Shown: positions 6,687-62,253 of the stretch, in pieces
Layout: every line of letters begins with the position of its first letter
Position numbering within the stretch: position 1 is the first letter of the stretch
DNA from: an uncultured Campylobacterales bacterium
Lineage (GTDB): Bacteria > Campylobacterota > Campylobacteria > Campylobacterales > CACVAW01
Direction: 5' to 3'
Assembly (NCBI GenBank): GCA_902727925.1
Contig: CACVAW010000010.1
Location: 72,726 to 136,725, forward strand
Length of the DNA stretch: 64,000 bases
Made by a program: the position numbers and the translations under genes
Notes under the pieces: generated by a model
Databases searched by the model: none
Seen by the model: only the letters and a program-made list of their open reading frames with translations
What the model was told of the DNA's origin: nothing

Positions 6687-6687
6687 A

Positions 6688-10418: not shown

Positions 10419-10421
10419 ATA

Positions 10422-14388: not shown

Positions 14389-14748
14389 ATGAAAAAATTA
14401 AATTTTTCGTTATTATTCGTTGGAGTTGCTTTATTTATAGGTCTTGGTATAACCACTCTTAGTGCTTGTGGCAGTAAAAGTGGTGATGCTAAATGTGGTT
14501 CTGATAAAGTAACTAAATGTGATAGTGGAAAATGTGGAGCTTCTAAAAAAGCTACAAAATGTGGAAGTAAATGTGGTGATGCAAAATGTGCTTCAGACAA
14601 ATCTTCAAAATGTGGTGATGCTAAATGTGGCGCTAAAAAAGCTACTAAGTGTGGAACTGCTAAATGTGGTACAGAAAGCAAAGCAGCTACAAAATGTGGT
14701 GCTGGTAAATGTGGAAGTGACAAAGAATCTAAATTAGATATGTTTTAA
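14389..14748 (+). CDS. Cys-rich KCG-repeat lipoprotein, paralogue of 13731-14201 (HvfA-like)
   Basis: MKKLNFSLLFVGVALFIGLGITTLSAC (lipobox) is followed by 12 K-C-[GDA] motifs and the tail SKLDMF. I prefer ATG 14389 (aaaagga upstream) over the track start 14362, because it aligns with the paralogue's N-terminus. Confidence 0.75.
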   Translation: MKKLNFSLLFVGVALFIGLGITTLSACGSKSGDAKCGSDKVTKCDSGKCGASKKATKCGSKCGDAKCASDKSSKCGDAKCGAKKATKCGTAKCGTESKAATKCGAGKCGSDKESKLDMF

Positions 14749-15549: not shown

Positions 15550-15655
15550 ATTATTACTCCACTATTAAAATATAGAAAATAATTTTTTCTATGATACCCT
15601 AAAAATAGTACTCTTATGCCATTTAAATTGCTATATTTAATTGGTGCGGTAATAA
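15550..15655. repeat. 106-bp perfect inverted repeat, left copy
   Basis: Exact reverse complement of 32014-32119, checked base by base. It contains the short ORF ATG 15617 MPFKLLYLIGAVII-stop. Confidence 0.95.
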
Positions 15656-15824
15656 TTTAATTCGTGAAACCTTTTTCTACATTTAGGTACAAGATTTTTA
15701 CTCTTTTTTCAAAATTAACTAAGAACAGATAGATACCTAATAAAATTCTATACAAAAAACATCTTCTTAATTAGATATAATAAACCAATTATTAAAACTG
15801 ATATAAAATCAAATAAGGACTCTA

Positions 15825-16994
15825 ATGCTTTCAAAATTTTCTTTTGGTACATACAGAACCACAAATAAAGACACTTCACACAAAGAAGCTCTAAAACACG
15901 CTATTGATGTAGGTATAAGAGACATCGATACATCATCAAACTATATGTTCGGAGACGCAGAACTCTTGATAGCAGATGTACTAAAAGAAACTAATAAAAA
16001 AGTCAAAGTAGTTTCAAAAGGTGGATATATACAAGGACCAACTCTTGAGCGTGTAAAAAATGGCTACAAAGTGGAAGACCTAGTAGAGTACGACCCAAAT
16101 TGCTTTCACTCTATATCTCCTGATTTTTTAGATGACCAAATAGAAAAATCTTTACAAAGACTTGGAACTGAATGCATAGATACCTACCTACTACATAATC
16201 CAGAATATTATTTAATGGCTGAGTTGAAAAAATCTGAAGATATAAAACATCATCAAAACATCATGCAAGAGCGTATCAAAAAAGCGTTTGGTACACTCGA
16301 ACAAAAAGTTAAAGAGGGCAAAATAAAAAACTATGGTATCAGTTCAAACTCGTTTGCCAAAAAAAGTGATGATAAGTACTTTTTAGAGTACAAAAACTTG
16401 ATAAAACACGCAAAAAATATAGCGGGAGAAGGTCACCATCTAAAAGTACTACAACTTCCTATGAACTTACTTGAAACTCATGGAGAGGCCTGTGCAAAGT
16501 GGGGATATGAAAACAACCTTGAAATCCATATAAACAGACCACTAAACGCTTTTCATCCTAAACTAGGAATGGTAAGACTAGCTAATTATTCAAGATGTAG
16601 CGAATATTTAGAACTACTACAAAAGTCCAAAGACCTATCACCAGAGCTTACTCCAATCATAACTCAACTTGAATCAATACTCACAGACTTTAGATGGGCA
16701 GGAGATATTGATGATACATTGACATACAAAGTCATCCCTCATATCAACAAAAATGTCACTTTAAATACAAATGAAGAGATAGATATATTAAGTGATTTTT
16801 TAGATTGTTATAAGGCTGAAGCAAAACATTTATTATCAGTAAAAACAAAATATGAACTTAAAAAAAGAGATATAAACGTACAAGAATCCATAGATAAAAC
16901 TGCTATAAAATACCTCAAAGATAACCCACACATAACAAAAATATTAATAGGTATGAGAAGCAAAGAATATGTAGACAGAGTCTTACAATACTAG
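15825..16994 (+). CDS. Aldo/keto reductase family oxidoreductase
   Basis: N-terminal FGTYRT...ALKHAIDVGIRDIDTSSNYMFGDAE and later IDTYLLHNPE follow the AKR pattern. Confidence 0.75.
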   Translation: MLSKFSFGTYRTTNKDTSHKEALKHAIDVGIRDIDTSSNYMFGDAELLIADVLKETNKKVKVVSKGGYIQGPTLERVKNGYKVEDLVEYDPNCFHSISPDFLDDQIEKSLQRLGTECIDTYLLHNPEYYLMAELKKSEDIKHHQNIMQERIKKAFGTLEQKVKEGKIKNYGISSNSFAKKSDDKYFLEYKNLIKHAKNIAGEGHHLKVLQLPMNLLETHGEACAKWGYENNLEIHINRPLNAFHPKLGMVRLANYSRCSEYLELLQKSKDLSPELTPIITQLESILTDFRWAGDIDDTLTYKVIPHINKNVTLNTNEEIDILSDFLDCYKAEAKHLLSVKTKYELKKRDINVQESIDKTAIKYLKDNPHITKILIGMRSKEYVDRVLQY

Positions 16995-17047
16995 CTTAAA
17001 ATCCACTATTTAACATATTTTGCTAAAATCCCAAAACTATTATAATA

Positions 17048-17314
17048 GAGACCTCTGAACAATTATAGTGATTCATAGCATTAAATACTTTTTAGTATAG
17101 TTCTTTTGCAGATTGAAGTACTAGCCATAGTTAATACGAAAGCTGCAAAGGGATTATACTGAGAAGTATTTATTGCCCAAAGGGAAGGATTGTTTTGGCG
17201 ATTTTTAGAAAAATAAAATCTTGCATTAGCTATGGCTAGTGCTTCTATTTTCTTTTTCTAAAACTCATCCAAAACCTATCCTTCTATGGACCACTATAAT
17301 TGTTCAGAGGTCTC
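17048..17314. repeat. 267-bp element bounded by 23-bp perfect terminal inverted repeats (MITE-like, or a long structured RNA)
   Basis: GAGACCTCTGAACAATTATAGTG (17048-17070) pairs with CACTATAATTGTTCAGAGGTCTC (17292-17314). A nested inner inverted repeat is gtactagccatagttaat / attagctatggctagtgc. AATA flanks both ends. No ORF lies inside. Confidence 0.5.
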
Positions 17315-17332
17315 AATACCAAGGAATAAATA

Positions 17333-18247
17333 ATGATGTATACAGTCGGACATAAAATACCTGATTCAGATTCAACTTGTAGTGCACTCTCACTTGCCTA
17401 TCTTATGAATAAGCTAGGACGCGAAGCAACTCCTGCTGTTCAAGGTAAACTCAACCCTGAAACAAAATTCATACTTAAAACTTTTGGCTTTGAGGCTCCT
17501 CAGCTGAAACAAAATTTTGATGGAGACAATGTGTTTATCACTGATCACTCAGACCGTGCTCAAAGTCATGATTTAACAAAGGCTACAATTGTAGGTATCG
17601 TAGATCATCATAAGCTAGGAGACATGACAAGTAAAGCTCCACTTGAATGCTGGATAAGACCTGTGGGATGTACAAATACTATAGTAAAAGAGATGTATGA
17701 CTTTCATAAAGTTGCCATTCCAAAGGGTATTGCAGGACTAATGATGAGCGCAATTCTTAGTGATACTGTGATATTTAAGTCTCCTACTTGTACACCTGTT
17801 GATATTGCGGCTGTTGAAGAACTAGCCCTCATAGCAGAAGTTGACGACTACAGAGCATTTGCACTTGAGATGTTCAAAGTAAAATCAAAAATCGAAGGAA
17901 CTCCAACTAAAGACCTTGTACTAAGAGATTTTAAAGATTTTGAGATGAATGGTAAAAAAATAGGTGTTGGACAACTTGAGGTTGTAGATATATCACTTTT
18001 TGACGATATAAAAGATGACTTAATGAATGACTTAAAAACATTCAAAAACGATGGACGAAACAGTATGTTACTACTTCTTACAGATATTATAAAAGAGGGA
18101 AGTGAACTTCTTGTTGTTAGTGATGATGAAGCAAAAATAGAAGATGCCTTTGATGTAAAACTTACAAATAATAAAGCTTGGCTAGAGGGTGTACTAAGCC
18201 GTAAAAAGCAAGTGATTCCAAATCTTGAAACCGCATTTGCAAACTAA
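17333..18247 (+). CDS. ppaC: Manganese-dependent inorganic pyrophosphatase (family II, DHH)
   Basis: GHKIPDSDSTCSA, ITDHSD, VDHHKLGD and SAILSDTVIFKSPT are DHH/DHHA2 family II PPase motifs. Confidence 0.9.
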   Translation: MMYTVGHKIPDSDSTCSALSLAYLMNKLGREATPAVQGKLNPETKFILKTFGFEAPQLKQNFDGDNVFITDHSDRAQSHDLTKATIVGIVDHHKLGDMTSKAPLECWIRPVGCTNTIVKEMYDFHKVAIPKGIAGLMMSAILSDTVIFKSPTCTPVDIAAVEELALIAEVDDYRAFALEMFKVKSKIEGTPTKDLVLRDFKDFEMNGKKIGVGQLEVVDISLFDDIKDDLMNDLKTFKNDGRNSMLLLLTDIIKEGSELLVVSDDEAKIEDAFDVKLTNNKAWLEGVLSRKKQVIPNLETAFAN

Positions 18248-18256
18248 AGGTACTTA

Positions 18257-19846
18257 ATGCTCAATATAAAAAACTTAACTAAACAGTATGGAAAAAGAAA
18301 ACTATTTGATAATATCAATCAAAGCCTTGATGTTGGTAAAAGATATGGTCTAATAGGAGCAAACGGAGCAGGTAAGTCAACTCTTGTAAAAATAATGGGA
18401 GGTGAGGAAGATAGTACCTCTGGAGAGATACAACTACAAAATGGTCTTAAAATGGGAGTTCTTGGTCAAAACCAATATGCCTATGAAGAGTTCACATTAA
18501 AAGACGCAGTTCTAAAAGGGAACCAAAGACTTTTTGACGCGATTAAAGAGAAAGAGGCACTATACGAAGCTGGAGATTTTAGCGACAAGGTTAATGATAG
18601 ACTAGGTATACTTGAGATGGTATGTGTTGAAGAAGATCCAATGTATGAAGCAGAAGTAAGAATAGAAAAACTTCTTGAAAACCTAGGTTTTGAAGCATCT
18701 ATGCAAAACGATAAAATGAGTTCAATCTCAAATGCAAATAAATTCAAAATCTTACTTGCACAAGTACTATTCCCAAAACCTGATGTACTACTACTTGATG
18801 AGCCTACAAACAACCTTGATATCGAAACCATCTCATGGCTAGAAAATGAGCTTAAAAACCATGAGGGAACAATGCTCATAATCTCACATGATAGACATTT
18901 TTTAAACTCAGTAGTTACACATATATTAGATCTTGACTTTGGAACACTTAGAGAGTTCAAAGGCACTTATGACGACTGGTATATAGCAGCAAATGTAATT
19001 CAAAAACAAAATGAACTTGACCGCGGCAAAAAATTAAAAGAGAAAAAAGAACTTGAGAGCTTCGTAGCAAGATTTAGCGCAAACGCCTCAAAAGCAAAAC
19101 AAGCAACAAGTAGACAAAAACAACTTGACAAACTAGACATCGGAGCAATCCAAGTGTCAACTAGAAGAAACCCAAATATAGTGTTTAACAAATCAAGAGA
19201 TGTAGGTAAAGTAATCCTAGAAATAGAAAATCTATCAAAATCTTATGATGATGTAAAAGTGTATGATAATTACGATTTCAAAGTAGAAAAAGATGACAAA
19301 ATAGCCATCATAGGCTCAAATGGTGTAGGTAAAACTACATTCTTAGAATTAATAACAAAGAATATATCCGCTGATAGTGGAACTATAAAATGGGGTGAGA
19401 CAATATCACACTCATACTTCCCACAAAATACAACAGAAATGATAACAGGCGAAGACAAACTATACGACTGGGTACAAGGCTTTAATCCCAAATGGCATAT
19501 AGATGATATAAGAAAAGCCCTAGGACGTATGCTATTCTCAGGTGAAGATCAAGACAAAAAAGTCTCAGCACTAAGTGGTGGAGAAAAACACCGTATGATG
19601 ATATCAAAAATGATGATGGAAAGCTCAAACTTCATAATATTTGATGAACCAGACAATCACTTAGACCTTGAAGCTATAATCGCACTTGGAGAGAGCTTAT
19701 ACAACTATGAAGCAAATGTAATATGCGTAACTCACGATAGAGAACTAATAGATGCTTTTGCAAATAGAATAATAGAAATCAAAAATGACGGAACAATAAC
19801 TGACTTCAAAGGGAGTTATGAAGAGTATAAAGAAGTGAATGAATAA
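18257..19846 (+). CDS. ABC-F family ATPase (two ABC domains, no TM domain)
   Basis: Two Walker A sites (GANGAGKST, GSNGVGKTT), two signature/Walker B sets (LLLDEPTNNLD, LSGGEKHR...IFDEPDNHLD) and a charged linker. Confidence 0.9.
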   Translation: MLNIKNLTKQYGKRKLFDNINQSLDVGKRYGLIGANGAGKSTLVKIMGGEEDSTSGEIQLQNGLKMGVLGQNQYAYEEFTLKDAVLKGNQRLFDAIKEKEALYEAGDFSDKVNDRLGILEMVCVEEDPMYEAEVRIEKLLENLGFEASMQNDKMSSISNANKFKILLAQVLFPKPDVLLLDEPTNNLDIETISWLENELKNHEGTMLIISHDRHFLNSVVTHILDLDFGTLREFKGTYDDWYIAANVIQKQNELDRGKKLKEKKELESFVARFSANASKAKQATSRQKQLDKLDIGAIQVSTRRNPNIVFNKSRDVGKVILEIENLSKSYDDVKVYDNYDFKVEKDDKIAIIGSNGVGKTTFLELITKNISADSGTIKWGETISHSYFPQNTTEMITGEDKLYDWVQGFNPKWHIDDIRKALGRMLFSGEDQDKKVSALSGGEKHRMMISKMMMESSNFIIFDEPDNHLDLEAIIALGESLYNYEANVICVTHDRELIDAFANRIIEIKNDGTITDFKGSYEEYKEVNE

Positions 19847-20302
19847 ATCTCTTATATCTTTGTAACAAAACTAGCAATTGAGGACGGAGTAAATATAATT
19901 ATGTTTACTCTGTAAACTCTTATCATAAGCTGGGCGATATTTCTTATAATCGTAATCAAAAACAATTTAAAAGAGTTCAAAAAAATATCTTTGAAGCTGA
20001 CTTAATTAAAAAAACCTATGAATGTTTACCTTGATTTTATACAAAAACCGGCATAATTCATAAAGATAAAAGGTGGAAATAAATCTTCACTAAATCCTGT
20101 TTAGATAAATCAGGGCATTATCCACTATCTATGTATTAATATTTAACAATGATTTTTATAGGTTTGATCACACGTATGGTTATGGGTATTTTATGGATTA
20201 TAGGTATGTTAAGTATATCATTCAAACTACTATAGAAGAGGATTTTTCTGCAACTATGAATCAATTTATTGAAAAATATATGTATTAAAAGTATAACAGT
20301 TT

Positions 20303-21412
20303 ATGTTTTTTAAAACCTCTGCTTTTTATTTCTTTTACTTTTCTTCTGTTGGGATACAAGTAATATTTCTTGCTGATATTCTTAAGAATATCGGTTATAG
20401 CCCTTATCTCGTAGGTATTGTATTTGCAATGCCTGGTATTATGAAGTTTGTTTTGCCTTTTTTGTTTATACGAATGAGGATAACTAAGTTCCAGCTGTAC
20501 TTTTATCAAGTACTTTTTATTCTTGCGAGTACAAGTTTGTATTTTACAATTGAGAATTTTTATTTACTTCTTATTAGTATATCCGTAATTGCATTTTGTA
20601 GTGGAGTATTGCTTCCGTTAGTTGATAGTATATCTATGCAAGTGTTTGGAAGTGGAAGATATGGGAAAACTAGACTTTGGGGTTCTATTGGATTTATTCT
20701 TATAGGACTTTTTTTAGGTGAAGTTCTTAGTGGATATTTTTTGGCACTTCATTGTTATTTGCTTTGTACAATTATGATAGTGTTGTTTTCTTATCTTTGT
20801 ATTGATGATGAACATTTGGTATTACCAAAATATGATTTTAATAGTAAAATAACTTCAAGAATTAATCAAAATAATTTTTGGATATCTATATTTTTATTGC
20901 AAGTAAGTTTTGGTGCGATGTATGGATTTTTTACTATATATGAGAGGTCTTTTGGTGTATCTCTTAGTACTATTAGTTATTTTTGGACAGTAGCTGTTGT
21001 GTGTGAGATAGTTATGCTTAATTATCAATCTTCAGTACTTAAGAGATTTGATCTTCTTAGTCTTATTAAGTTTTGTATAGGCGTGACTGTTATTCGGTGG
21101 TTTATACTTTACTTATATCCAGCGAGCGAGATCCTTGTGTATCTATCACAAGGATTACATGCTTTTAGTTTTGCTCTATTTTTAAGTGCAAGTTTGGCAT
21201 ATTTACACAAATATTATCATAATAAGAATTTGGTTCAAATGTTTTTTCAAGGTATAGTTTTCGGGCTTGGAAGTTTTGTAGGCTTTTATCTTTTTGGACT
21301 TTTATATGGACGAGAACTGTTTTTATATGCTGCTATTATAGCTTTTGTTTCGTTTGTAGTCTTAGCTTACCAGAAGAAAGAAACACATTTAAAAAAGGAT
21401 ATTGATGTTTGA
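20303..21412 (+). CDS. MFS-type transporter (12-TM-like hydrophobic profile)
   Basis: Hydrophobic throughout, with a GxLxDRxGxxR-like loop (GSGRYGKTRLWGS). Family assignment is tentative. Confidence 0.65.
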   Translation: MFFKTSAFYFFYFSSVGIQVIFLADILKNIGYSPYLVGIVFAMPGIMKFVLPFLFIRMRITKFQLYFYQVLFILASTSLYFTIENFYLLLISISVIAFCSGVLLPLVDSISMQVFGSGRYGKTRLWGSIGFILIGLFLGEVLSGYFLALHCYLLCTIMIVLFSYLCIDDEHLVLPKYDFNSKITSRINQNNFWISIFLLQVSFGAMYGFFTIYERSFGVSLSTISYFWTVAVVCEIVMLNYQSSVLKRFDLLSLIKFCIGVTVIRWFILYLYPASEILVYLSQGLHAFSFALFLSASLAYLHKYYHNKNLVQMFFQGIVFGLGSFVGFYLFGLLYGRELFLYAAIIAFVSFVVLAYQKKETHLKKDIDV

Positions 21413-21857
21413 TATGATTTTGAATTCTAGAGCTGATTGGGTTGTTAACTTTGTAATCTTTTGCTCTTTTATTTTGCCATTTGCTTTAGTGTTTTCTTTC
21501 AAGTTAGCACGTAAGAAGAAGTATTTATTACACAAGTATACTCAAATAGGGCTTTTTGTAGTGGCTACGCTAGCAGTTATTTTACTTGAAGTTGATATTA
21601 GGTTTTTTCATCTCAATGACGCAATTGAGGTTAGTAAGTATTATGGGACTACTTATTTATTAGTACTGTTTGTGATACATCTTGTATTTGCATTTTCTTC
21701 GTATATTTTATGGATATATATGCTTATAAAGTCTTCAAAACAATACCCAAAGAAATTCAATTTTAATCATAAATTATATGGAATGATTTTGTTTTTTGAT
21801 TTACTTATGACTTCGGTTACGGGTATTTGGTTATATGTATTGTTGTTTATCTATTAA
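21402..21857 (+). CDS. Small integral membrane protein, function unknown
   Basis: About four predicted TM segments. Overlaps the upstream gene by 11 nt, suggesting co-transcription. Confidence 0.5.
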   Translation: MMFDMILNSRADWVVNFVIFCSFILPFALVFSFKLARKKKYLLHKYTQIGLFVVATLAVILLEVDIRFFHLNDAIEVSKYYGTTYLLVLFVIHLVFAFSSYILWIYMLIKSSKQYPKKFNFNHKLYGMILFFDLLMTSVTGIWLYVLLFIY

Positions 21858-21964
21858 TATTTTATATATAAACTATATAAGATAGTTATGGAGTTATTAT
21901 GGAGTTACTTATTTTTAAGTATTAAGTGTTAAACTTTTACTAATAATTAAATAGGAGTTGCTAA

Positions 21965-22705
21965 ATGGCATATAAACTAGATGAAGATTTAGAGTTTTTA
22001 CAATATTGTAGTAATGATGAATTAGATGTATTGGTAGAAACATTAACTAAAGATAAAAATGGAAAAAAAAGAGTAACTGAAAATCTTACTAAGAAAAATG
22101 GATATATACAACATAACCCAAATCATTTAATGTATTTAAATGAAATTTGTGAAGAAGTGCAAAGGTTTGGAGGAAATTCGTTCACTAATATTTTTTGGAG
22201 AAGAGGAAGTGGAGTTCAGTATAGAGAAGTTCTACTTGATGTTTGTAACAAGATGAAAGTAAATTACAATAAAAAATCAGAAACCAAAAATATTGAACAA
22301 AATTTATTAATGAAACTTTTAGAAGATGCCATGAAAAATATGTCAGAAAAAGAATTAAAAGAAATATCACAAGAGTTAAATCTGAAAACTACAAATTTCA
22401 CTTCTAATGGAGTTACTATTGCTTTACAAATAGCTATTAAACAAAGTGGCTTTCTTGCATATAAAGTTGCATTAATAGTTGCTAATTCAATTGCAAGAGC
22501 ATTATTAGGACATGGTCTAAAGTTTGGTACAAACATATTTATAACACGATCCATATCTATTTTTGCTGGGCCAATTGGCTGGGTTATAACTGGTTTATGG
22601 ACGGCTTTAGATATAGCTGGACCAGCATATCGAGTTACTATTCCAGTTACAATACAAATTGCATATTTAAGACAAAAATATATAAACAAAGAATTTTTGG
22701 AGTAA
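21965..22705 (+). CDS. YaaW-like (UPF0174/DUF3944-type) protein
   Basis: N-terminal DEDLEFLQYCSNDELDVLVETLTKDKNGKKR and later FGGNSFTNIFWRRGSGVQYREVLLDVCNKMKV resemble the E. coli YaaW sequence as I recall it. Confidence 0.6.
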   Translation: MAYKLDEDLEFLQYCSNDELDVLVETLTKDKNGKKRVTENLTKKNGYIQHNPNHLMYLNEICEEVQRFGGNSFTNIFWRRGSGVQYREVLLDVCNKMKVNYNKKSETKNIEQNLLMKLLEDAMKNMSEKELKEISQELNLKTTNFTSNGVTIALQIAIKQSGFLAYKVALIVANSIARALLGHGLKFGTNIFITRSISIFAGPIGWVITGLWTALDIAGPAYRVTIPVTIQIAYLRQKYINKEFLE

Positions 22706-22711
22706 TAAATT

Positions 22712-22870
22712 ATGGATAATGTATCAACAAAAAAAACTGACACAGTAAAACTGAGTTGCTATATTGATAAACTGTCTTATGCTAAATTTAAAAATAAATC
22801 GTTAAATAAAGGGCTGTCAATATCTGCATATTTAAGGTTTTTAATTAAAAAAGATTTAAAAGAGGGATGA
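22712..22870 (+). CDS. 52-aa ribbon-helix-helix (CopG-like) small protein; below the ORF-track cutoff
   Basis: My own translation is MDNVSTKKTDTVKLSCYIDKLSYAKFKNKSLNKGLSISAYLRFLIKKDLKEG. The beta-strand (VKLSCYID) plus two helices fits the RHH pattern. Confidence 0.4.
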   Translation: MDNVSTKKTDTVKLSCYIDKLSYAKFKNKSLNKGLSISAYLRFLIKKDLKEG

Positions 22871-22896
22871 TTTTTTAATTAAATTTTGCTTAGACA

Positions 22897-22930
22897 ATAG
22901 TCTTCTAAATAAATTTATTTAGAAGACTAT
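22897..22930. terminator. 34-nt perfect palindrome between convergent genes (bidirectional terminator candidate)
   Basis: atagtcttctaaataaa/tttatttagaagactat lies between the RHH ORF (+) and the dodecin gene (-). Confidence 0.6.
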
Positions 22931-22939
22931 ATAAGTTTT

Positions 22940-23146
22940 TTACTTATCTAACACAAAAGATATTTTTGCATTAATTCTATAGTTTACTATTTTGTCGCCA
23001 TCAACTTCTGCACTCATGTTATTTACATTAATAGACTTGATATTTTTGATAGTTTTTCCTGCCATTTTAACAGCGTCTTGTGCTGCATCTTCCCAACCTT
23101 TTTTTGATTGAGCTAGAATTTCTACTACTTTTACTACTTGTGACAT
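22940..23146 (-). CDS. Dodecin family flavin-binding protein
   Basis: The 68-aa sequence VVKVVEILAQSKKGWEDAAQDAV...INAKISFVLDK matches the dodecin length and pattern. Confidence 0.75.
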   Translation of the reverse strand: MSQVVKVVEILAQSKKGWEDAAQDAVKMAGKTIKNIKSINVNNMSAEVDGDKIVNYRINAKISFVLDK

Positions 23147-23325
23147 ATTGTTTCCTTAATTATAAATTTGAGTATATTATAGTAGAGTAAACCTAAAAAT
23201 ATCTATTTGTAATTGTAAATCTTTAAATAAACATATTTTAATCAGGCATAAAATAAATGAAGTTATAATTCGAACATTAAATTCTCAATTACGAGAGTTA
23301 TATTTTTAACTTAGGAGTTAATTAA

Positions 23326-24144
23326 GTGAAAAAAGAAATGATTACCATGGCTATAGTTGCAACACTTTTTAGTGCTTGTGCTAGTACAAATACTGTAGTA
23401 AAAAGTAGTGTATCTGAACAAAAAACAAATCTTACATTAAGTACGGCAGGTAAAGGATTTGGTCCTCAATCTCCTCGTGATATTGATGTTGTTTCAGGAA
23501 GTAATACAATAAAATTTAGTACTGCACCTAAATATCAAGAGATGAATCTTTGTAATATTCATTTCCATAAAAATGCAGAACATAAAGGTGGAGAGTTTAC
23601 TACTAGTACAAAAAGTGGATATAAGTATTCTGGAAGTCTAAATACCAAAGAACTTACACAACTACCAAATGATGTTTGTTCAGGTAAATATGGTGGGTTA
23701 AATGCAGGTGATACTATCGAGTTACATTATGTACATTCAACTGCCAAAGTTAATCCAGGTCCTACTCTTGGAGCGTGTTTAAGTGATGCTATAAAAAACC
23801 CTCAGCTTCGTGTAGAAGCTCAAGTATATGTTCTTGTAAACGATAAGAATGCTCTTGATTTTACTGAACTTACAAAAAATGAAAAGATTAATGGCTTTAA
23901 TCAAGCAGTTAATATTCCAAATACCACTGGTACACCGGTTGAGTATGCAGGTTCAACAACAGGTCCTAGCTATAATGAACAAGGCTCACCATTTCAAGTT
24001 ACTTGGAACGTAAGACCAAAAATCGCTAAAGTGAATATTAAAAGTGTTGGTAAGTGGTGTGAAGCAAATATATATAATGAAGATCATGCTCATGGTGTAA
24101 GAAACCTTGTGACAAACCCAGATCTTATTTCAGAGATTAAGTAA
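23326..24144 (+). CDS. Lipoprotein with a carbonic-anhydrase-like zinc-site motif pattern (alpha/delta-type)
   Basis: Lipobox LFSAC. NIHFHKNAEHKGGEF ... GDTIELHYVHST parallels the alpha-CA pattern HFHWG...EH...ELHLVH. Confidence 0.5.
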   Translation: MKKEMITMAIVATLFSACASTNTVVKSSVSEQKTNLTLSTAGKGFGPQSPRDIDVVSGSNTIKFSTAPKYQEMNLCNIHFHKNAEHKGGEFTTSTKSGYKYSGSLNTKELTQLPNDVCSGKYGGLNAGDTIELHYVHSTAKVNPGPTLGACLSDAIKNPQLRVEAQVYVLVNDKNALDFTELTKNEKINGFNQAVNIPNTTGTPVEYAGSTTGPSYNEQGSPFQVTWNVRPKIAKVNIKSVGKWCEANIYNEDHAHGVRNLVTNPDLISEIK

Positions 24145-24213
24145 CTAAAGTCAAATATACCTCGTAGTTAAATTACTATGGAGGTATATTTATTAATATT
24201 ATTTCCATAAGAG

Positions 24214-25035
24214 GTGTTTTTAATGAATTTTTATGATAGATTAGATACTGCTTGGAAGTTCAACAATTCGGTTCTTTGTATAGGTCTTGACGCTGATATT
24301 GAGATTATCAAAGATTATGAAAAGTCCATTTTTGAGTTCAACAAAAATATTATCGATGCTACGCACGACCTTGTATGTGCATATAAACCTCAGATATCCT
24401 ATTATAATGCTTATGGTCTTGAGCGTGAACTTGAAATGACTATAGAATATATCAAGACAAAATATCCAGATATTTTAGTGATATTAGACTCAAAAAGAGG
24501 GGATATTGGTAAGACTAGTGAGCTTTATGCTATTGAAGCATATGATAGGTACAAAGCTGATTGCGTTACAGTGAATCCATATATGGGAAGTGATAGTGTT
24601 GAGCCATTTACAAGATATAAAGACAAAGGTGTAATAGTACTTTGTAAAACATCAAATCCAAGTTCAAGTGAAATTCAAAGTCTTAGAATAAAAAATGAAA
24701 CAGAAGAGAAAAAAGTATATGAAGAAATACTTGATCTATGTATAAACAAATGGAATTCAAATAAAAATATAGCTGTCGTTATGGGTGCTACTCAAGTAGA
24801 AGAGTTGGCTCACATAAGAAGTCTAAGTGATGAAGTACCTTTTTTAATTCCAGGAGTTGGAGCGCAGGGTGGAGATATCGAAGATGTCGTAAATAACGCA
24901 AAAACTTCTAAGAATAAAGGTATGATAATAAATTCAAGTAGAGCTATAATATATGCTTCAAAAGATGTAGATTACGCAAAAAATGCACGAATAATTGCCA
25001 AACAAACAAGAGATGAAATAAACCAATATATATGA
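24214..25035 (+). CDS. pyrF: Orotidine 5'-phosphate decarboxylase, type 2
   Basis: LCIGLDAD, ILDSKRGDIGKT and IPGVGAQGG motifs. The start may be ATG 24223. Confidence 0.9.
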   Translation: MFLMNFYDRLDTAWKFNNSVLCIGLDADIEIIKDYEKSIFEFNKNIIDATHDLVCAYKPQISYYNAYGLERELEMTIEYIKTKYPDILVILDSKRGDIGKTSELYAIEAYDRYKADCVTVNPYMGSDSVEPFTRYKDKGVIVLCKTSNPSSSEIQSLRIKNETEEKKVYEEILDLCINKWNSNKNIAVVMGATQVEELAHIRSLSDEVPFLIPGVGAQGGDIEDVVNNAKTSKNKGMIINSSRAIIYASKDVDYAKNARIIAKQTRDEINQYI

Positions 25036-25571
25036 AACTTTGCGGTATAGATGAAGCTGGAAGAGGTCCACTTGCTGGGCCACTTGTTTTTGCCGGAGTA
25101 GTCCTAAGCAAACCTATTGATGGTTTGGCTGATTCTAAAAAACTTAGTCAGAAAAAACGAGAGTTTTTTTATGAAGAGATTATTCAAAATAGTATTTATA
25201 AAATAATATTCACTAATTCAGCTAAGATAGATAAAGATGGTCTTTCATCTTGTATATCAAACTCTTTAGAAGAGTTAAAAGAGTTCTTTTTAGACTATGA
25301 TATACTTTTTGATGGTAATAGTAATTATAAAGTTGAAGGTATAAGAACACTTATAAAAGCAGATACACTAATAGCTGAAGTAAGTGCTGCAAGTATTTTG
25401 GCAAAAGTATCAAGAGATAGGTATATGACTAAAGTTGATGATTCATATCCAGAATATGGTTTTGCTAAACATAAGGGGTATGGAACAAAAATGCATAGAG
25501 ATGCAATTTTAAAATATGGTGTTTGTCCTCTTCATAGAATGAGTTTCTTAAAAAATATTTTAGTTCTTTAA
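25032..25571 (+). CDS. rnhB: Ribonuclease HII
   Basis: CGIDEAGRGPLAGPLVFAGV and ADSKKLS motifs. ATGA overlap with the pyrF stop. Confidence 0.9.
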   Translation: MKLCGIDEAGRGPLAGPLVFAGVVLSKPIDGLADSKKLSQKKREFFYEEIIQNSIYKIIFTNSAKIDKDGLSSCISNSLEELKEFFLDYDILFDGNSNYKVEGIRTLIKADTLIAEVSAASILAKVSRDRYMTKVDDSYPEYGFAKHKGYGTKMHRDAILKYGVCPLHRMSFLKNILVL

Positions 25572-26507
25572 AAAGTCATAAGGTGCACTTTCACCAAGTA
25601 GTGCTTTAATTCTATTTTTTACATTAGGATGAGTTGAAAATATACTATCACCTTTGACAAAGATATAAGCTGCTTTTCTTGCTTTATTATTATCATTTGG
25701 ATAATCATTTTTTTCATAATCACCTGAGATTTTTCTTAGTGCACTTGCCATTGCGTCAGGGTTTCTTATAAGTTCAACTGCTCCACTGTCAGCCATATAT
25801 TCACGGCTACGCGAAAGGTACATTTGAAGCATTATAGTTATAATAGGTAAGATGAATTGCAAAAGTAATAGAATCATTTTTGCATTTTGTGCACCTTTGC
25901 TTCTACTCCCTCGCATAAAGAAATAAACAATATTGTTAACCACAAAAAGCATTATATTTGTAAGTACACCTACAACTAAAGTAAGCTTTATATCCTCATT
26001 TCTAACATGTGTTATCTCATGTGCCATTACGGCTTGAATTTCTTCTCTGTTGAGTTTGTTTATCAGACCTGTAGTGATTGCTACAAGAGAGTTGTCTCCC
26101 CAACCACTTGCAAAGGCATTCATATAATCAGCATTGACAATATATACTTTTGGTATTTTTTGTATGCCTCCTGCTACGCAAAGCTCTTCTACTATATTAT
26201 AAATCTGTTTTGCTGTGTAGTCAGTTGATTTGGCATTTACCTCTATATATTCATCGCCTTTTAGTAGTACCTTGTGAAAGAATTTGGTGGATATATAGAT
26301 ACTTATAATTGCGACACCAAGCATTATAAGTGTAGCTATAGGAGTAACTTCAAAGTTAATAAGCATCTTTAAAGACTCGCTAAGTGTTCCTTGATTAAGT
26401 ATAATAACATCAAGTAAAAGACCTATACAGCAGTATATAAAGATATATATAGCTAAAACTATTTTTGTTTTTTTACGGTTTTTTCTAATTATATCTTTAT
26501 ATGACAT
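25560..26507 (-). CDS. htpX: M48-family zinc metalloprotease HtpX
   Basis: HEITHV zinc motif with flanking TM segments and a downstream REYMADSGA block. Confidence 0.85.
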   Translation of the reverse strand: MSYKDIIRKNRKKTKIVLAIYIFIYCCIGLLLDVIILNQGTLSESLKMLINFEVTPIATLIMLGVAIISIYISTKFFHKVLLKGDEYIEVNAKSTDYTAKQIYNIVEELCVAGGIQKIPKVYIVNADYMNAFASGWGDNSLVAITTGLINKLNREEIQAVMAHEITHVRNEDIKLTLVVGVLTNIMLFVVNNIVYFFMRGSRSKGAQNAKMILLLLQFILPIITIMLQMYLSRSREYMADSGAVELIRNPDAMASALRKISGDYEKNDYPNDNNKARKAAYIFVKGDSIFSTHPNVKNRIKALLGESAPYDFLKN

Positions 26508-26520
26508 TTGTTATATACCT

Positions 26521-27870
26521 TTATCCTATTTTTGACTTTTTCATTATATCAGAAATCAAAAATGCAAGTTCTAATGCTTGTGAAGCATTCAGCCTTGGAT
26601 CACAAGTTGTTGTATATTTTTCGCCTAATTTTTCTTCTGTGATATCTTGAAAACCTCCAACACATTCAGTTACATTTTTACCAGTCATTTCAAGATGTAT
26701 TCCTCCGGGAATTGTACCTTCAGCTTTATGTATCTCGAAGAATTTCTTTACTTCAAAAAGTACTTTATCGAACATTCTTGTTTTATAGTTTGTTGAAGAG
26801 TTAAAAGTATTTCCGTGCATTGGATCACTGCTCCATATTACATTTCTTCCCTCTTTTTTGATAGCTCTTATTAGTGATGGTAAATTTTCTTCTATTTTAT
26901 CCGCACCCATTCTTACAATCAGAGTAAGTCTTCCTTCTTCATTTGTTGGGTTTAATACTTGCGTTAATTTTATCAGTTCATCTGGACTTATCTTATCACT
27001 GATTTTTACGCCTATTGGGTTTTGTATACCTCTAAAGAATTCTATATGAGCACCATCAAGGTCTCTTGTACGTTCACCTATCCATACAAAATGCGCAGAA
27101 CAGTCATACCATCCACCTTTTGTACTATCTTCTCTTGTTAGCGCTGTTTCATAAGGCATAAGAAGAGCTTCATGTGAAGTATATAGTGTAGTTTCAGCGA
27201 TTTGTGGAGATGAAGATGGGTTTATTCCACACGATTCCATAAATTTTAGAGTTTGTTCTATTTGTTTTGCCATTTCTTGATATTTTAAGCCTAGTGTTGA
27301 GTTTTTTACGAAATCTAGATTCCACTTGGTTACTTCGTGTAAGTCAGCAAGACCACCTCTAGCAAAACCTTTTAGTAAGTTTTGAGTAACGGCTGCTTGA
27401 TTATATGCTTTTATCATACGGCTTGGATCAGGTATTCTTGCATTTTGGTTAAATTCAGACGAATTTATGATATCACCTCTAAAGCTAGGAAGTTCTAGTC
27501 CATCTTTTGATTCGATATCGCTACTTCTTGGTTTTGCAAATTGTCCAGCTACACGTCCAATTTTTACAACTGGTTTTTCTCCAGCGTAAGTTAGGACTAC
27601 AGCCATTTGAAGTAGTATTTTGAATAAGTCTTTTATGTTGTTTGCACTAAACTGATCAAAGCTTTCAGCACAATCACCACCTTGAAGTAGATATGCTTCA
27701 CCTCTACAAACTTTTGCTAGTTCTTTTTTTAAGTTTCTTGTTTCACCTGCAAATACTAGTGGAGGTAAATTTGAGAGTTCTTTTTCTATAATTGAGAGTT
27801 CTTTTATATCCTGATAAGTTGGTTGTTGCTTAATAGGTTTTTTCTTCCAACTTTCCTTTGACCAATTCAT
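26521..27870 (-). CDS. 3-deoxy-7-phosphoheptulonate (DAHP) synthase, class II
   Basis: 449 aa. WSKESWKKKPIKQQPTY..., LLQGGDCAESF and KPRSS motifs are characteristic of class II DAHP synthase. Confidence 0.9.
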   Translation of the reverse strand: MNWSKESWKKKPIKQQPTYQDIKELSIIEKELSNLPPLVFAGETRNLKKELAKVCRGEAYLLQGGDCAESFDQFSANNIKDLFKILLQMAVVLTYAGEKPVVKIGRVAGQFAKPRSSDIESKDGLELPSFRGDIINSSEFNQNARIPDPSRMIKAYNQAAVTQNLLKGFARGGLADLHEVTKWNLDFVKNSTLGLKYQEMAKQIEQTLKFMESCGINPSSSPQIAETTLYTSHEALLMPYETALTREDSTKGGWYDCSAHFVWIGERTRDLDGAHIEFFRGIQNPIGVKISDKISPDELIKLTQVLNPTNEEGRLTLIVRMGADKIEENLPSLIRAIKKEGRNVIWSSDPMHGNTFNSSTNYKTRMFDKVLFEVKKFFEIHKAEGTIPGGIHLEMTGKNVTECVGGFQDITEEKLGEKYTTTCDPRLNASQALELAFLISDIMKKSKIG

Positions 27871-27956
27871 ATTGTTCCTTATTTAATGTTTAATGTTTTA
27901 ATTATACTTAATTGCTTTTAGCTTTTGTGAAGTTTACGTAAAATAGATTATTTAGA

Positions 27957-28700
27957 TCAGTGTTCATTTATATTTTTGTGAATCTCTTCAAGTGTTTTTA
28001 AAAAATCTTCTCTTACATCATAAGCAAAAGGGTTTTCATTTTGGATAGTATAAAAAAGCTCATCAGAGTCGTTTTTGACTATATTCTTTGCACTTTGTAA
28101 GTATTCATAAGTTTTTGTTTGTTGATCTTCATACACAGGTAAATCAAACTTAACTAAAGCTTTTGATACAAAGTGGCTTAGGGCTTGGATGTATGCCATT
28201 TGCTTGTCGTGTTCCTTCGCTGTTGTTTTAATTATTTTTAGATGTAATTTTTGGGTTAAGAAGTTTGTTATCTCTTTTTCTTGTGTTGTTCTTATTGGGA
28301 ATATTGCTATTTTTTTGTCTTTAAGACCGTCTTTTGTGCTTTCAGGTCCAAAAAGAGGGTGCGTAGCAAAGATTTCTACATCTTTGTGCAAATGTTTTTC
28401 TAGTAAATCAATTGCTTTTACTTTGATTGAAAGCACATCTATGACAAGCGTATTAGGTGCTATTAAGTGTGCGTTTTGTTCTATGAAATTTTTAAATCCA
28501 GTATATGGAATAGCTAAGATTATAATATCTTGTTTGAGTGCATTTTCCAGAGTTGAGGATTCTATATCATTTGGTACTAAGCTATGAGTATCATAAACAT
28601 ATATGTCGAAAAATTCTTTTAAGTGTGAAGCTATTAGTTTACCAAAGTTCCCATAGCCTATTAAGCCTATGGTTTTTGTACAGTTTTTTTTATCAATCAT
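27957..28700 (-). CDS. tyrA: Prephenate/arogenate dehydrogenase
   Basis: Rossmann motif IGLIGYGNFGK and FATHPLFGP. Adjacent to the DAHP synthase gene. Confidence 0.75.
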   Translation of the reverse strand: MIDKKNCTKTIGLIGYGNFGKLIASHLKEFFDIYVYDTHSLVPNDIESSTLENALKQDIIILAIPYTGFKNFIEQNAHLIAPNTLVIDVLSIKVKAIDLLEKHLHKDVEIFATHPLFGPESTKDGLKDKKIAIFPIRTTQEKEITNFLTQKLHLKIIKTTAKEHDKQMAYIQALSHFVSKALVKFDLPVYEDQQTKTYEYLQSAKNIVKNDSDELFYTIQNENPFAYDVREDFLKTLEEIHKNINEH

Positions 28701-28789
28701 AATTGTGTAATAACCTATAAAATAAGAGATAGTAGAAGTTTAGCATAAGTAAGTTTCAATATAATTAACGCCTATAAATATAGATGTAA

Positions 28790-29224
28790 GTGAATAGGAC
28801 TTTTATAATGATTTTTGATAAATTAGATAAATATAGTGATTTGGGACTTTTGATACTTAGAGTAGGTATAGGAATAATGTTTATATGTCATGGATACCCT
28901 AAAATTTTGGATGGAGTTGATGAGTGGACAAGACTTGGTAGTAATCTTAGTCATCTTGGAATTAATTTTGCTCCTACTTTTATGGGTCTTAGTGCTGCTT
29001 TAGCAGAATTTGTTGGTGGGGTACTTCTAGTTTTAGGGTTACTAACTAGGCCTGCGTGTATATTTTTATGTATCACTATGACGGTAGCTACTGTTATGCA
29101 TATTAGTGAAGAACATGATTTCAAGAAATATTCTCACGCACTTGAAGCTGCGATATTGTTTTTCAGTCTTGTTTTTATTGGGCCTGGTAAATATTCGTTT
29201 GATAGAAAATTTTCTATGCACTAA
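28790..29224 (+). CDS. DoxX family membrane protein
   Basis: LLILRVGIGIMFICHGYPK... with four TM segments, typical of DoxX. The start may be the internal ATG 28808. Confidence 0.7.
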   Translation: MNRTFIMIFDKLDKYSDLGLLILRVGIGIMFICHGYPKILDGVDEWTRLGSNLSHLGINFAPTFMGLSAALAEFVGGVLLVLGLLTRPACIFLCITMTVATVMHISEEHDFKKYSHALEAAILFFSLVFIGPGKYSFDRKFSMH

Positions 29225-29235
29225 AGATTAGATTA

Positions 29236-30240
29236 ATGCAAGTAACAACAAAGAAAAAATGTGTAGCTCTTTTTAGTGGTGGACTTGATAGTATGATATC
29301 TATGAAGCTTATGAGTGATCAAGGTATTGATGTAACTGCTCTTCATATAGATATGGGCTTTGGTGCAAAAAAGTCAAAAAAAGATTTATTAGAAAAACGA
29401 GCTACTAGTGTAGGTGCGAAACTTAGAATCGCAGATATCACAGAACAATATATAAAAGATATACTCTTTACTCCAAAATATGGTTATGGAAAGAATTTGA
29501 ACCCTTGTGTTGATTGTCATGGGAATATGCTTGCAGTTGCAAAAAAAGTTATGGTTGAAATTGGAGCTGACTTTATTGTTACCGGTGAAGTAATAGGGCA
29601 AAGACCAAAAAGTCAAAAAAAAGATGCTATGAAAATAGTTACTGAAATTGGTGTAGGTATTGATGATGTTGATTTGGTACTTCGTCCAATGAGTGCAAAA
29701 CTACTTGAACCTACAAAAGCTGAAATAAAAGGTTGGGTAGATAGAGAGAAACTTCTAGGACTTAGCGGAAGAAATAGAGAAGTTCAACTAAATTTTGCAA
29801 AAGAGTATGGTTTTGAAGACTATGAAACTCCAGGAGGAGGGTGTCTTCTTACTGATATTGGGTTTACTAAGAAGATTAAAGAATCAGTGAAATTTTCAAA
29901 GTTTGATGTAGAAGAGCTTTCAGTTCTTAAAGTTGGGCGTCACTTAAGACTTCCTGATGGAGCAAAGCTTGTTCTTGGCAAGGATCAAAAAGATAATGAA
30001 ACTATGAGAACTTTAGAACTTACTAAATATAACGTTATGGATGTTGTAGATGTTCCTAGTCCTCTTGCTTTACTTTCTTCTAATATTAGTGATCAAGATA
30101 GAAATCTTGCTATTAAAATTATTCTTACGCATACAAAAGCGCTTGCTAGTAATAAGTATGATGTAAATATTGCAGGTACAATATACTCAGATAGTCCGTT
30201 TGAAGCAAAAGAGGCAACAAGAGAGTATTTTGTAAATTAA
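29236..30240 (+). CDS. PP-loop ATP pyrophosphatase family protein (tRNA thiolation-type, ThiI/MnmA-like)
   Basis: SGGxDS PP-loop (ALFSGGLDSM) and NPCVDCH cysteine motif. Confidence 0.6.
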   Translation: MQVTTKKKCVALFSGGLDSMISMKLMSDQGIDVTALHIDMGFGAKKSKKDLLEKRATSVGAKLRIADITEQYIKDILFTPKYGYGKNLNPCVDCHGNMLAVAKKVMVEIGADFIVTGEVIGQRPKSQKKDAMKIVTEIGVGIDDVDLVLRPMSAKLLEPTKAEIKGWVDREKLLGLSGRNREVQLNFAKEYGFEDYETPGGGCLLTDIGFTKKIKESVKFSKFDVEELSVLKVGRHLRLPDGAKLVLGKDQKDNETMRTLELTKYNVMDVVDVPSPLALLSSNISDQDRNLAIKIILTHTKALASNKYDVNIAGTIYSDSPFEAKEATREYFVN

Positions 30241-30247
30241 GTAAATT

Positions 30248-31975
30248 TTATTTTACTTGTGTTCTATATATTAGAGTAAAACAAGGTATTGGTCCAGTAG
30301 TAGTTCTTGCATTCATAATTCCAGAAAATTGTATTTCAAAAGATTTTACATCATCATCAAAGTCTGGTGATGGGGATATTGTTATATTTGAGTCATTTTT
30401 AAATGTGACATCAGATGGATAATCTAGGCTTAGTCCACTATTCATAGTACTTGTCTCTGGAGAACAATTATTGTCACTGAAGATAAATGGTGTTCCAGTA
30501 GAATTTAGATTTCCAACAAAAAGACTTAAATTTTCGGGTAGGGTATCTCTTATAGTTACTGTGCCTGTATCTGGAGATTTGTCTCCTAAATTTTTTATTA
30601 TGAGAGTATAATCAATATATGCTCCTGGAATTGCCTTAGCATTATCTTCATTGTTTACATTGTCCCAAATAGTTTGATTTGTTTTGCTTAGTGTTAGAAT
30701 CACTTCTCTTTTTTTACCCACTGTATAAACTCCATCACTAGGTAAGTAAGAAAAGTTTATTTTCCCATCACTCATTACAGCTGTACTAACTTCACTAAAG
30801 TTTCCTGTTGTTCCTGATCTATAAAGAAGTCCATAAGTTTCACCGTTTTCTATATCTAATCCTATTGTAGAAGCATTAAACTCTAGGTTAACAAGTCCAT
30901 CTGTACCTGTAGTATCTATGTACCATGTTCTACTGGCTCTATCTGTGTAATTGCTACTAATTGCTAAATCAGATGACGTAACAGAAGTTGGAGGAGTAGT
31001 TGTAAGATAGTTTACTCCTACAGTCATATATTTACCATTGGAAAGAAAAGTATTGTTAGTAATAGTTATTCCTTGCGAAGTTGCTACGCTCTGAATACCA
31101 TCACTTTCTTCTCCAATACCAGCAACAAAAAAATCATATTTTCCATTAGCGCTTGTATCACCATTATATATGTCTATATAAGTAGAAATATTTTGAAAAG
31201 ATTTATCCCATTTTGATGATAGGTAGTTGTTTAAAATATTTTTTTGAGCGGAGTTTAGAGTAGCTTGATAAAAAATGGCTTCAAATATACGTCCGTTAAA
31301 AGCTAAGTTTGTTGAAGTCGCAAAATTACCAAGAGCAAAACTAGAATTTATGTTTACATATGGTCCAGCTCCTCCGTCAGATAGTTGAATTCTTCCATCT
31401 CTAAGTACTTGTTGAGAGGTAGTGTTAGCAATAAAATTCCAAATATATTGTTGAGCTATTGTAATAGAAAATACACCTGAAAGTCTAGCTGGATTACCAC
31501 AACATGTGCCATGGTCAAAATAAGTTCTATTATTCCCCCAAGGTGTATGGGCACTTATCCTACTGTTTGTTTGAAGTGCTGAGTTTGATGAGAATAAAAA
31601 ATGATTTTCTATTCTATCCGTAGCTGCTACAATATATATTTCTGCTATTCGTATAGGTGTACCTGTATAAATATCGGTAGCTCTTCTAAGAGAATCATTA
31701 GCCCCATCATAGTCAACTCCATGTCTTTCTGCTGAAATAGAATTTTGTCTATATCTTGGTCTTGATACATTAGCAGGAGCTGATAAATCATTGTTATTGA
31801 CTGATTTATCAGACCAGTCTTGAATAAAGGAATTATTATTTGGATTGTTTGTATAGTTATTATCTGCATCAAGATCAACTGCGTCATACCATGCCCGTTG
31901 GCTAGTACTAATATCATCAGGAGCTGCTGAGTTAAGAAGCGTAATTAATGTGAATACGGCGAGTAGTACTTTCAC
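30248..31975 (-). CDS. Secreted LamG-like (concanavalin-type jelly-roll) domain protein with beta-rich C-terminal domains
   Basis: I prefer GTG 31975, preceded by AAAGGGA, which gives the signal peptide VKVLLAVFTLITLLNSAAP. The track's ATG 32053 has no SD and lies inside the 106-bp repeat. LamG-like block ...FNGRIFEAIFYQATLNSAQKNILNNYLSSKW. Confidence 0.7.
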   Translation of the reverse strand: MKVLLAVFTLITLLNSAAPDDISTSQRAWYDAVDLDADNNYTNNPNNNSFIQDWSDKSVNNNDLSAPANVSRPRYRQNSISAERHGVDYDGANDSLRRATDIYTGTPIRIAEIYIVAATDRIENHFLFSSNSALQTNSRISAHTPWGNNRTYFDHGTCCGNPARLSGVFSITIAQQYIWNFIANTTSQQVLRDGRIQLSDGGAGPYVNINSSFALGNFATSTNLAFNGRIFEAIFYQATLNSAQKNILNNYLSSKWDKSFQNISTYIDIYNGDTSANGKYDFFVAGIGEESDGIQSVATSQGITITNNTFLSNGKYMTVGVNYLTTTPPTSVTSSDLAISSNYTDRASRTWYIDTTGTDGLVNLEFNASTIGLDIENGETYGLLYRSGTTGNFSEVSTAVMSDGKINFSYLPSDGVYTVGKKREVILTLSKTNQTIWDNVNNEDNAKAIPGAYIDYTLIIKNLGDKSPDTGTVTIRDTLPENLSLFVGNLNSTGTPFIFSDNNCSPETSTMNSGLSLDYPSDVTFKNDSNITISPSPDFDDDVKSFEIQFSGIMNARTTTGPIPCFTLIYRTQVK

Positions 31976-32013
31976 TAAATTCCCTTTTTGTTCTATATGT
32001 TGTATATTATAAT

Positions 32014-32119
32014 TTATTACCGCACCAATTAAATATAGCAATTTAAATGGCATAAGAGTACTATTTTTAGGGTATCATAGAAAAAATTATTTTCTATATT
32101 TTAATAGTGGAGTAATAAT
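32014..32119. repeat. 106-bp perfect inverted repeat, right copy
   Basis: Exact reverse complement of 15550-15655. It lies 39 nt upstream of the preferred GTG start of the LamG-like gene. Confidence 0.95.
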
Positions 32120-32158
32120 AAACTTTATTATTAATATTTTTGATATAATCTATGTATT

Positions 32159-32695
32159 ATGAAGAGTTATTTTATTACAGATTTATTAGTACCTAATGTC
32201 AGTAAATATCTAAAAGAAGTATACAAAAAGTATAGCCCTGATTTTGTATGCTACCGAGATAAGTCGGGGAATAGTGACTTTATGAAAAAAGCAGAAATCT
32301 TTCTTCAAACTTCTAAAGAATATGGAATTAAAAATATATATTTAAATAGTAATTTTAAATTAGCATCTAGTTTAGGTTATGATGGTGTGCATCTTACTTC
32401 ATTTCAAATTGACTTGATAGATAAAGTTAAAAAGATAAAGTTAAAAGTAATTGTTAGTACTCATAATGAAAATGAGATTAAGAGATCTAAAGAAGCTGAC
32501 TTCATAACATATAGCCCGGTATTTAAGACTCCTAATAAGGGGGTTTCAAAGGGAATTATAGATTTAAAAGAGATAGTTTTAAAATATAAAGATGTCAAAA
32601 TATTTGCTCTTGGTGGTATAATATCACCTATACATATTGAACAAATTAAGAGTACAAATGCTTATGGGTTTGCTTCAATAAGATATTTTCAATAG
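32159..32695 (+). CDS. thiE: Thiamine-phosphate synthase
   Basis: GYDGVHLTS, VSTHN, ADFITYSPVFKTPNK and ALGGI motifs. Confidence 0.75.
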   Translation: MKSYFITDLLVPNVSKYLKEVYKKYSPDFVCYRDKSGNSDFMKKAEIFLQTSKEYGIKNIYLNSNFKLASSLGYDGVHLTSFQIDLIDKVKKIKLKVIVSTHNENEIKRSKEADFITYSPVFKTPNKGVSKGIIDLKEIVLKYKDVKIFALGGIISPIHIEQIKSTNAYGFASIRYFQ

Positions 32696-62242: not shown

Positions 62243-62253
62243 AGGTAAATTAA

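Follow-up and report, generated by a model that had tools for sequence, protein, structure and literature searches.

In a 64,000-nt window of contig CACVAW010000010.1 (assembly GCA_902727925.1, positions 72,726 to 136,725), from the metagenome-assembled genome (MAG) of an uncultured Campylobacterales bacterium, an aldo/keto reductase gene and a gene for a secreted protein are each preceded by one arm of a perfect inverted repeat, and it is the nature of this repeated element that we consider here. The left copy (15550–15655, plus strand) is the exact reverse complement of the right copy (32014–32119, minus strand) over 106 of 106 bases, and the two enclose a 16.4-kb segment (15656–32013) that provides context and is not part of the element. 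The left copy, with a 99-bp core at 15554–15652 and TA dinucleotides at 15552–15553 and 15653–15654, lies in a non-coding stretch of about 1 kb that runs from genes for Cys/Lys-rich lipoproteins to the reductase gene, whose ATG (15825) is 169 nt away. The right copy (core 32017–32115, TA at 32015–32016 and 32116–32117) occupies 106 of the 183 nt between the starts of two divergent genes, that of the secreted protein on the minus strand (GTG 31975) and a thiE-like gene on the plus strand (ATG 32159), from which it is separated by 38 and 39 nt, respectively. An earlier note on this DNA had described the same layout, with spacings of 39 nt to the GTG and 170 nt to the reductase ATG that were each 1 nt too large.

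The match grows to 110 nt (15550–15659 and 32010–32119) if one mismatch is tolerated, and beyond this the left and right flanks are unrelated, with similarity at background level on both sides, in agreement with the earlier description of an exact reverse complement with abrupt ends. In 10 shuffles of the window the longest exact inverted repeat was 17–20 nt, and the number of perfect 106-nt pairs expected by chance is approximately 7e-49. A search of the 64-kb window for a third copy returned only chance A+T-rich matches. The small coding features that had been reported within and beside the repeat are all present: the left copy contains a 14-codon open reading frame (ORF), MPFKLLYLIGAVII-stop, while the corresponding ATG of the right copy (32053) reads in frame into the secreted-protein gene downstream, giving a 601-aa ORF, and the GTG start at 31975 has Shine-Dalgarno support. 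The element itself, however, has no coding capacity beyond these 14 codons, and the ATG and mini-ORF are incidental.

The two copies share an anatomy in which an A+T-rich core of 99 bp is held between TA dinucleotides (103 bp counting both TAs), and the element reads AT-TA-TTACTCCACTATTAAAATATAG ... CTATATTTAATTGGTGCGGTAA-TA-A. Its ends form imperfect terminal inverted repeats of about 27 nt, ATTATTACTCCAC...GTGCGGTAATAAT, with about 22 of 27 aligned positions matching and two 1-nt gaps. One end is of a consensus type and the other is degenerate. In the left copy the consensus-type terminus (15628–15654, plus strand) ends in ...TTGCTATATTTAATTGGTGCGGTAA-TA and matches TTACCGCACCAATTAAATAT on the other strand at 20 of 20 positions, and the degenerate terminus (15552–15578, plus strand) reads TA followed by TTACTCCAC-TATTAAAATATAGAA, which is the end that agrees with its partner at about 22 of 27 positions with the two 1-nt gaps. 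The right copy has its consensus-type terminus at 32015–32041 (plus strand), reading TA followed by TTACCGCACCAATTAAATATAGCAA, and its degenerate terminus at 32091–32117 (minus strand), as placed by the comparison of ends. Aligned with its own reverse complement, the whole element is 62% identical, and the predicted RNA fold pairs the termini, with an energy of -19.5 kcal/mol compared to a mean of -11.1 for shuffled sequences (z = -3.2; 0 of 200 shuffles were as good). TA stands on both sides of both copies, with no longer direct repeat at these places.

Another way to view the element is through the wider set of sequences that have the same termini. A 20-nt anchor was taken from the better end (TTTAATTGGTGCGGTAATAA) and was found, in a scan of GTDB genomes with one for each species, in two Campylobacterales MAG contigs, along with six matches in unrelated phyla that are presumably due to chance. 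In both Campylobacterales contigs the anchor is present twice, in inverted orientation, and the elements bounded in this way (278 and 272 bp) have interiors with no relation to that of the window element. A 21-nt terminus pattern additionally matched 19 JGI metagenome contigs. These carry termini in pairs with a spacing of 268–293 bp, a single 52-bp element, and unpaired termini, either truncated or cut by contig ends. The family contigs thus comprise Campylobacterales MAGs and metagenome contigs of unchecked taxonomy. When 32 oriented ends from about 21 other contigs were aligned, one of them probably spurious, the columns outside the element were random, TA was present in 30–31 of the 32, and TTACCGCACCAAYTAAATA was nearly invariant; of the six ends of fetched loci at which the search pattern did not force TA, four had it. 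The duplication in the window starts AT-TA-TTAC and stops GTAA-TA-A, matching the independently defined family boundary to within 1–2 nt, and the one or two extra A/T bases at its edge are expected either by chance or from a T-TA-A target preference. The four best-defined copies do not fit a target-site duplication of more than TA.

The family has at least three size classes (52, 106 and approximately 270 bp). The members of approximately 270 bp are 81–99% identical to each other despite having different flanks and lying in backgrounds of 34–49% GC; those of about 272 bp are located at L005:157-428, L010:999-1269, L016:3600-3871, L021:4702-4971, L023:648-942, L024:1752-2023 and L030:350-621. 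They fold as one long hairpin (-119.6 kcal/mol for L005), and 33 of the 110 predicted pairs are kept despite a change on both sides in at least one sequence, including pairs between the two termini as well as pairs of internal stems. Rfam, at its gathering threshold, gave no RNA family in the window or in seven family loci, and the window is without tRNAs. The smallest member (L026:7821-7876) is a minimal 52-bp element in which two termini meet back to back between TA dinucleotides.

Different cargo within the same ends, sharp boundaries and unrelated sites therefore identify this as a family of miniature inverted-repeat transposable elements (MITEs), and we consider each arm of the inverted repeat to be a copy of such a non-autonomous DNA transposon, with a probability of roughly 0.8. 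The element is small and non-coding (within the range of roughly 50–300 bp), has terminal inverted repeats, and occurs in copies with exact edges at unrelated sites. Bacterial MITEs have been described as A+T-rich elements of under about 200 bp with terminal inverted repeats, terminal 5'-TA-3' and hairpin transcripts (Delihas review, PMC2229807), and the window element agrees with this description in its size, termini, TA, A+T richness and hairpin. We propose that a transposase encoded elsewhere would recognise the termini and insert the element at a TA, and that the target TA would become duplicated on insertion, as in IS630/Tc1-mariner-type elements. Judging from the TA flanks alone, TA would be the target-site duplication and the enzyme would be of the IS630/Tc1-mariner type. 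Such a duplication would imply empty sites with a single TA, either ...GTTTAT-TA-AATTATAAT... or ...AAAGAT-TA-ATTTAATT..., and an autonomous partner would be bounded by TA-TTACCGCACCAA....

The absence of divergence between the copies had earlier been taken to imply recent duplication or ongoing gene conversion, and their identity does point to the former; with MITEs, recent transposition would account for it. The inverted orientation of the copies, and the fact that each points at its downstream gene, would be incidental, and for a pair of copies the direct and the inverted arrangement are equally likely. The earlier idea of a portable promoter or leader module was correct insofar as the sequence is portable, but what is portable is a miniature transposable element, not a module belonging to these two genes.

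Several observations weigh against interpreting the arms as MITEs. One of the two termini of the 106-bp form is degenerate, the interior of this form was not seen elsewhere, and only the two copies of it in the window are known. Neither the window nor the surroundings of any family member yielded a transposase or autonomous element with these termini. No empty site was recovered among the nearest relatives, since these share only 61–70% protein identity and little synteny, and as a result a TA duplicated at the target site is indistinguishable from a TA that belongs to the element. The reductase has its closest homologues (61–62% identity) in a completely different gene neighbourhood. For the PP-loop/ThiI-like protein, the closest homologue (70%) retains the gene order prephenate dehydrogenase-DoxX-ThiI, and the ThiI-like gene is there followed by large surface-protein genes and not by thiE. 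With neighbourhoods this different in the relatives, the ancestral junctions are not reconstructable.

The search for a partner extended to the window, the neighbours of family members, and plasmid and viral collections, and in none of these was an IS630-family element or DDE_3 transposase found; the plasmid and viral collections likewise gave no match to the 106-bp element, the 272-bp element or the terminus pattern. Several candidates were set aside. An IS1595-like ORF 340 nt from a terminus motif in L031 is a syntenic chromosomal gene of 197 aa beside argininosuccinate lyase, and true IS1595-family relatives have ends (GGGTCATGACAC...) that are unrelated to those of the family. An IS110 transposase (L016) and a zinc-ribbon ORF (L026) lie kilobases away from the elements, with no termini bounding them. 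The apparently solitary terminus motif of L031 is a 12-nt indel relative to orthologous loci: in a comparison of L031:756-775 with L038-L045, some orthologous loci have the motif upstream of the 197-aa gene (P0241, with an IS1595-type N-terminal helix-turn-helix), and others have a gap of 12–13 nt in its place. A footprint, a remnant and a binding site are all possible readings of this motif.

Known bacterial MITEs offer two useful comparisons, both of which we regard as functional analogues by description and not as relatives by sequence. RUP, a 107-bp MITE of Streptococcus pneumoniae with about 108 copies that is proposed to be mobilised by IS630-Spn1 (PMC2229807), resembles the window element in its near-equal length, terminal inverted repeats, TA ends, A+T richness, intergenic position and lack of coding sequence, and its highly conserved copies are likewise read as recent insertions. 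RUP differs in belonging to another phylum, in having a partner insertion sequence (IS) where none was found for the window element, in its number of copies (about 108, compared to the two known here), and in its termini, which have 9 contiguous pairs as against about 27 nt. The Correia elements, or NEMIS, of Neisseria occur in forms of about 107 and 155 bp with common termini of 24–26 bp, and an integration host factor (IHF) site, RNase III processing and promoter activity have been shown for them (PMC2229807). Like the family described here, they have several size classes, long common terminal inverted repeats, TA ends and hairpin-forming transcripts, and they are often situated just upstream of genes, where promoter context can change. 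Their terminus sequence and host clade are different, however, and the Correia forms differ from each other by one internal insert, whereas the interiors of the size classes in the window family are unrelated.

A first alternative is that the 106 bp are a promoter or leader cassette, kept identical by selection or gene conversion, which co-regulates the reductase and the secreted protein. Putative promoters have been reported on MITEs such as the Correia elements (PMC2229807). The two copies here are oriented alike with respect to the gene that follows each of them, the element holds a T-tract followed by TATGAT, and the left copy has a -35-like TTGCTA located 17 nt from an AATAAT at its junction. 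This junction site is not reproduced at the right copy, however, and promoter-like matches around the copies are not commoner than in shuffled sequence (8 compared to 7.0, and 9 compared to 7.7). Both genes also have -10-like boxes of their own in native sequence, the reductase gene a TATAAT-type box, GATATAAT, about 45 nt before the ATG at 15825, and the secreted-protein gene a TATAAT just outside the element, before the GTG at 31975. The distance to the start codon differs fourfold between the copies (169 and 38 nt), the shared orientation is almost uninformative with two copies of which one lies in a divergent region, and elsewhere the same termini enclose unrelated interiors. We therefore find little to sustain the shared module put forward in the earlier note, and judge it improbable. 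What can be said is that the right copy, filling most of the 183-nt divergent promoter region (106 of 183 nt), must form the region upstream of both divergent -10 boxes and so must influence at least the context upstream of these promoters; an effect on the expression of the two divergent genes is plausible from this arrangement. The other suggestion made earlier was that the 16.4-kb segment can flip, and in its strongest version the arms would exist for this purpose, as an inversion switch that exchanges the sequence upstream of the reductase and secreted-protein genes. A perfect inverted repeat of 106 bp is of sufficient length for homologous recombination, and a secreted or surface protein beside one arm is a type of gene that is often phase-variable. 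The locus thus resembles RecA-dependent inversions between inverted IS or repeat copies in having two identical inverted sequences on one replicon, and fimS-type invertons in having inverted repeats beside a surface-protein gene. In fimS-type systems, however, short repeats surround a promoter segment of a few hundred bp and are served by a dedicated recombinase. The segment here, instead of being a small promoter cassette, comprises 16.4 kb of housekeeping genes, and Pfam scans of the genes of at least 100 aa between 10.4 and 34.1 kb, all of which are housekeeping or defence genes, found no invertase, integrase, transposase or other recombinase in or beside it. Between 20.3 and 32 kb, the genes of both strands have a positive GC skew at third codon positions (GC3 skew), the same as in the flanks up to 59.7 kb, and this agreement suggests that the assembled orientation is long-standing for most of the segment; compared to known RecA-dependent inversions, the identity is also short. 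With the arms already explained by a mobile-element family, flipping is physically possible but unsupported, and although rare RecA-dependent inversion across the 106 bp is possible, a dedicated switch is very improbable. We give a similarly slight chance to a combination in which the element supplies the secreted surface protein with promoter-upstream sequence and the segment flips, in a subpopulation, through recombination of the two copies.

The remaining alternatives concern the class of element and the assembly itself. With two inverted ends of about 25 nt located about 50 nt apart and able to form a hairpin, the layout recalls a REPIN, that is, two inverted repetitive extragenic palindromic (REP) sequences mobilised by a RAYT (IS200/IS605-like) enzyme, or else an IS608-like element targeting TTAC, which is how the core begins and which we take to be the IS608 target tetranucleotide. 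REPs, however, are hairpins, whereas the termini here are not palindromic alone, each folding at only 0 to -1.1 kcal/mol, and TTAC is symmetric at both ends within the inverted repeat, while IS200/IS605 elements have ends that are asymmetric. The conserved TA flanks are better suited to cut-and-paste elements, and no RAYT-like or TnpA gene is present among the window genes scanned, making mobilisation of this kind scarcely probable. It is just as hard to attribute the repeat, or the orientation of the enclosed segment, to the metagenome assembler. The source is a MAG contig of 163,805 bp, in which a 106-bp inverted repeat leaves orientation ambiguous unless reads or read pairs span it. Logan contigs with the reductase or the thiE-like gene, from runs ERR3801502 and ERR3801603, break off 29–31 nt inside the element, presumably because the repeat breaks assembly of a short-k graph, and these independent assemblies of the two runs, while breaking at the repeat edges, reproduce both of the unique junctions that were checked. 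The anatomy is moreover that of a real element family present in unrelated data sets, and the GC3 skew fits the assembled orientation for most of the segment. Taken together, the evidence continues to favour two MITE copies.

The segment between the copies contains genes for the aldo/keto reductase, a DHH/DHHA2 phosphoesterase, an ABC-F ATPase, an MFS-like protein, DUF420 and DUF3944 proteins and a delta-type carbonic anhydrase, as well as pyrF, rnhB, an M48 peptidase, class-II DAHP synthase, prephenate dehydrogenase, DoxX, the PP-loop/ThiI-like protein and the secreted protein of unknown family. The product of the secreted-protein gene (30248–31975, minus strand) has a clear N-terminal signal-peptide-like stretch. 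It gave no Pfam match and no PDB sequence match at E<=1, and its only NCBIfam match was a sub-threshold one to a DUF11 repeat, leaving the label of LamG-like that it had been given without backing from these searches. The closest relative has large CARDB-like surface proteins at the position of this gene, and the site therefore looks like a variable slot for surface proteins. At the other end of the right copy, in the stretch leading to the thiE-like gene (32120–32161), TTTTTGATATAAT ends about 9 nt before the ATG and no Shine-Dalgarno sequence is visible; the thiE-like mRNA may be leaderless, or the true start may lie further downstream. At the left end of the segment (15825–19846), the reductase, DHH and ABC-F genes have a negative GC3 skew (-0.36, -0.04 and -0.31, respectively); the skew is positive on both strands for the other genes up to 59.7 kb, and negative again for every gene after 59753 (59753–63939; -0.29 to -0.46). 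These changes of sign, at 15825–19846 and after 59753, could represent a switch in replication skew or a foreign block.

The intergenic region between the reductase and DHH genes, inside the 16.4-kb segment, holds a second and different foldback element resembling a MITE (17045–17317, 273 bp). It has terminal inverted repeats of 34 nt that are 91% complementary, and its interior resembles that of the metagenome elements of about 272 bp with TTACCGCACC ends, although its own ends are different. The modules that it has in common with these elements are ACTAGCCATAGCTAAT / ATTAGCTATGGCTAGT and a central CCC-loop-GGG. To the left of the repeat, a defence island (771–13526) consists of five large co-directional genes, for a DrmD-like SNF2 helicase, a type III methyltransferase, a Ppl-like PHP+AAA protein, a Schlafen/AlbA_2 protein and a type III restriction enzyme, and the left MITE copy lies about 2 kb past its end. 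In between are two adjacent lipoprotein-like ORFs (13731–14201 and 14362–14748), both extremely rich in Cys and Lys and neither matching Pfam, of which the first is built of 18/36-nt tandem repeats encoding (KKCDKS/KKCDYK)n.

In the searchable literature we found no description of MITEs in Arcobacter or Campylobacterota, nor of a family with TTACCGCACCAAYTAAATA termini, and the MITE family with TA-flanked TTACCGCACCAAYTAAATA termini may itself be undescribed. If the copies did recombine so as to flip the segment in a subpopulation, improbable as we consider this to be, the locus would constitute a phase-variation switch built from MITEs without a dedicated recombinase, swapping the contexts of a surface-protein gene and a reductase gene. 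The more probable consequence of our analysis is a correction, in that the striking perfect inverted repeat would be a pair of small transposon insertions and hence an ordinary kind of feature. Such elements nevertheless matter for the genomes that carry them: they break short-read assemblies, with the effect that the orientation of an enclosed segment can become ambiguous in MAGs, and they can alter promoter context.

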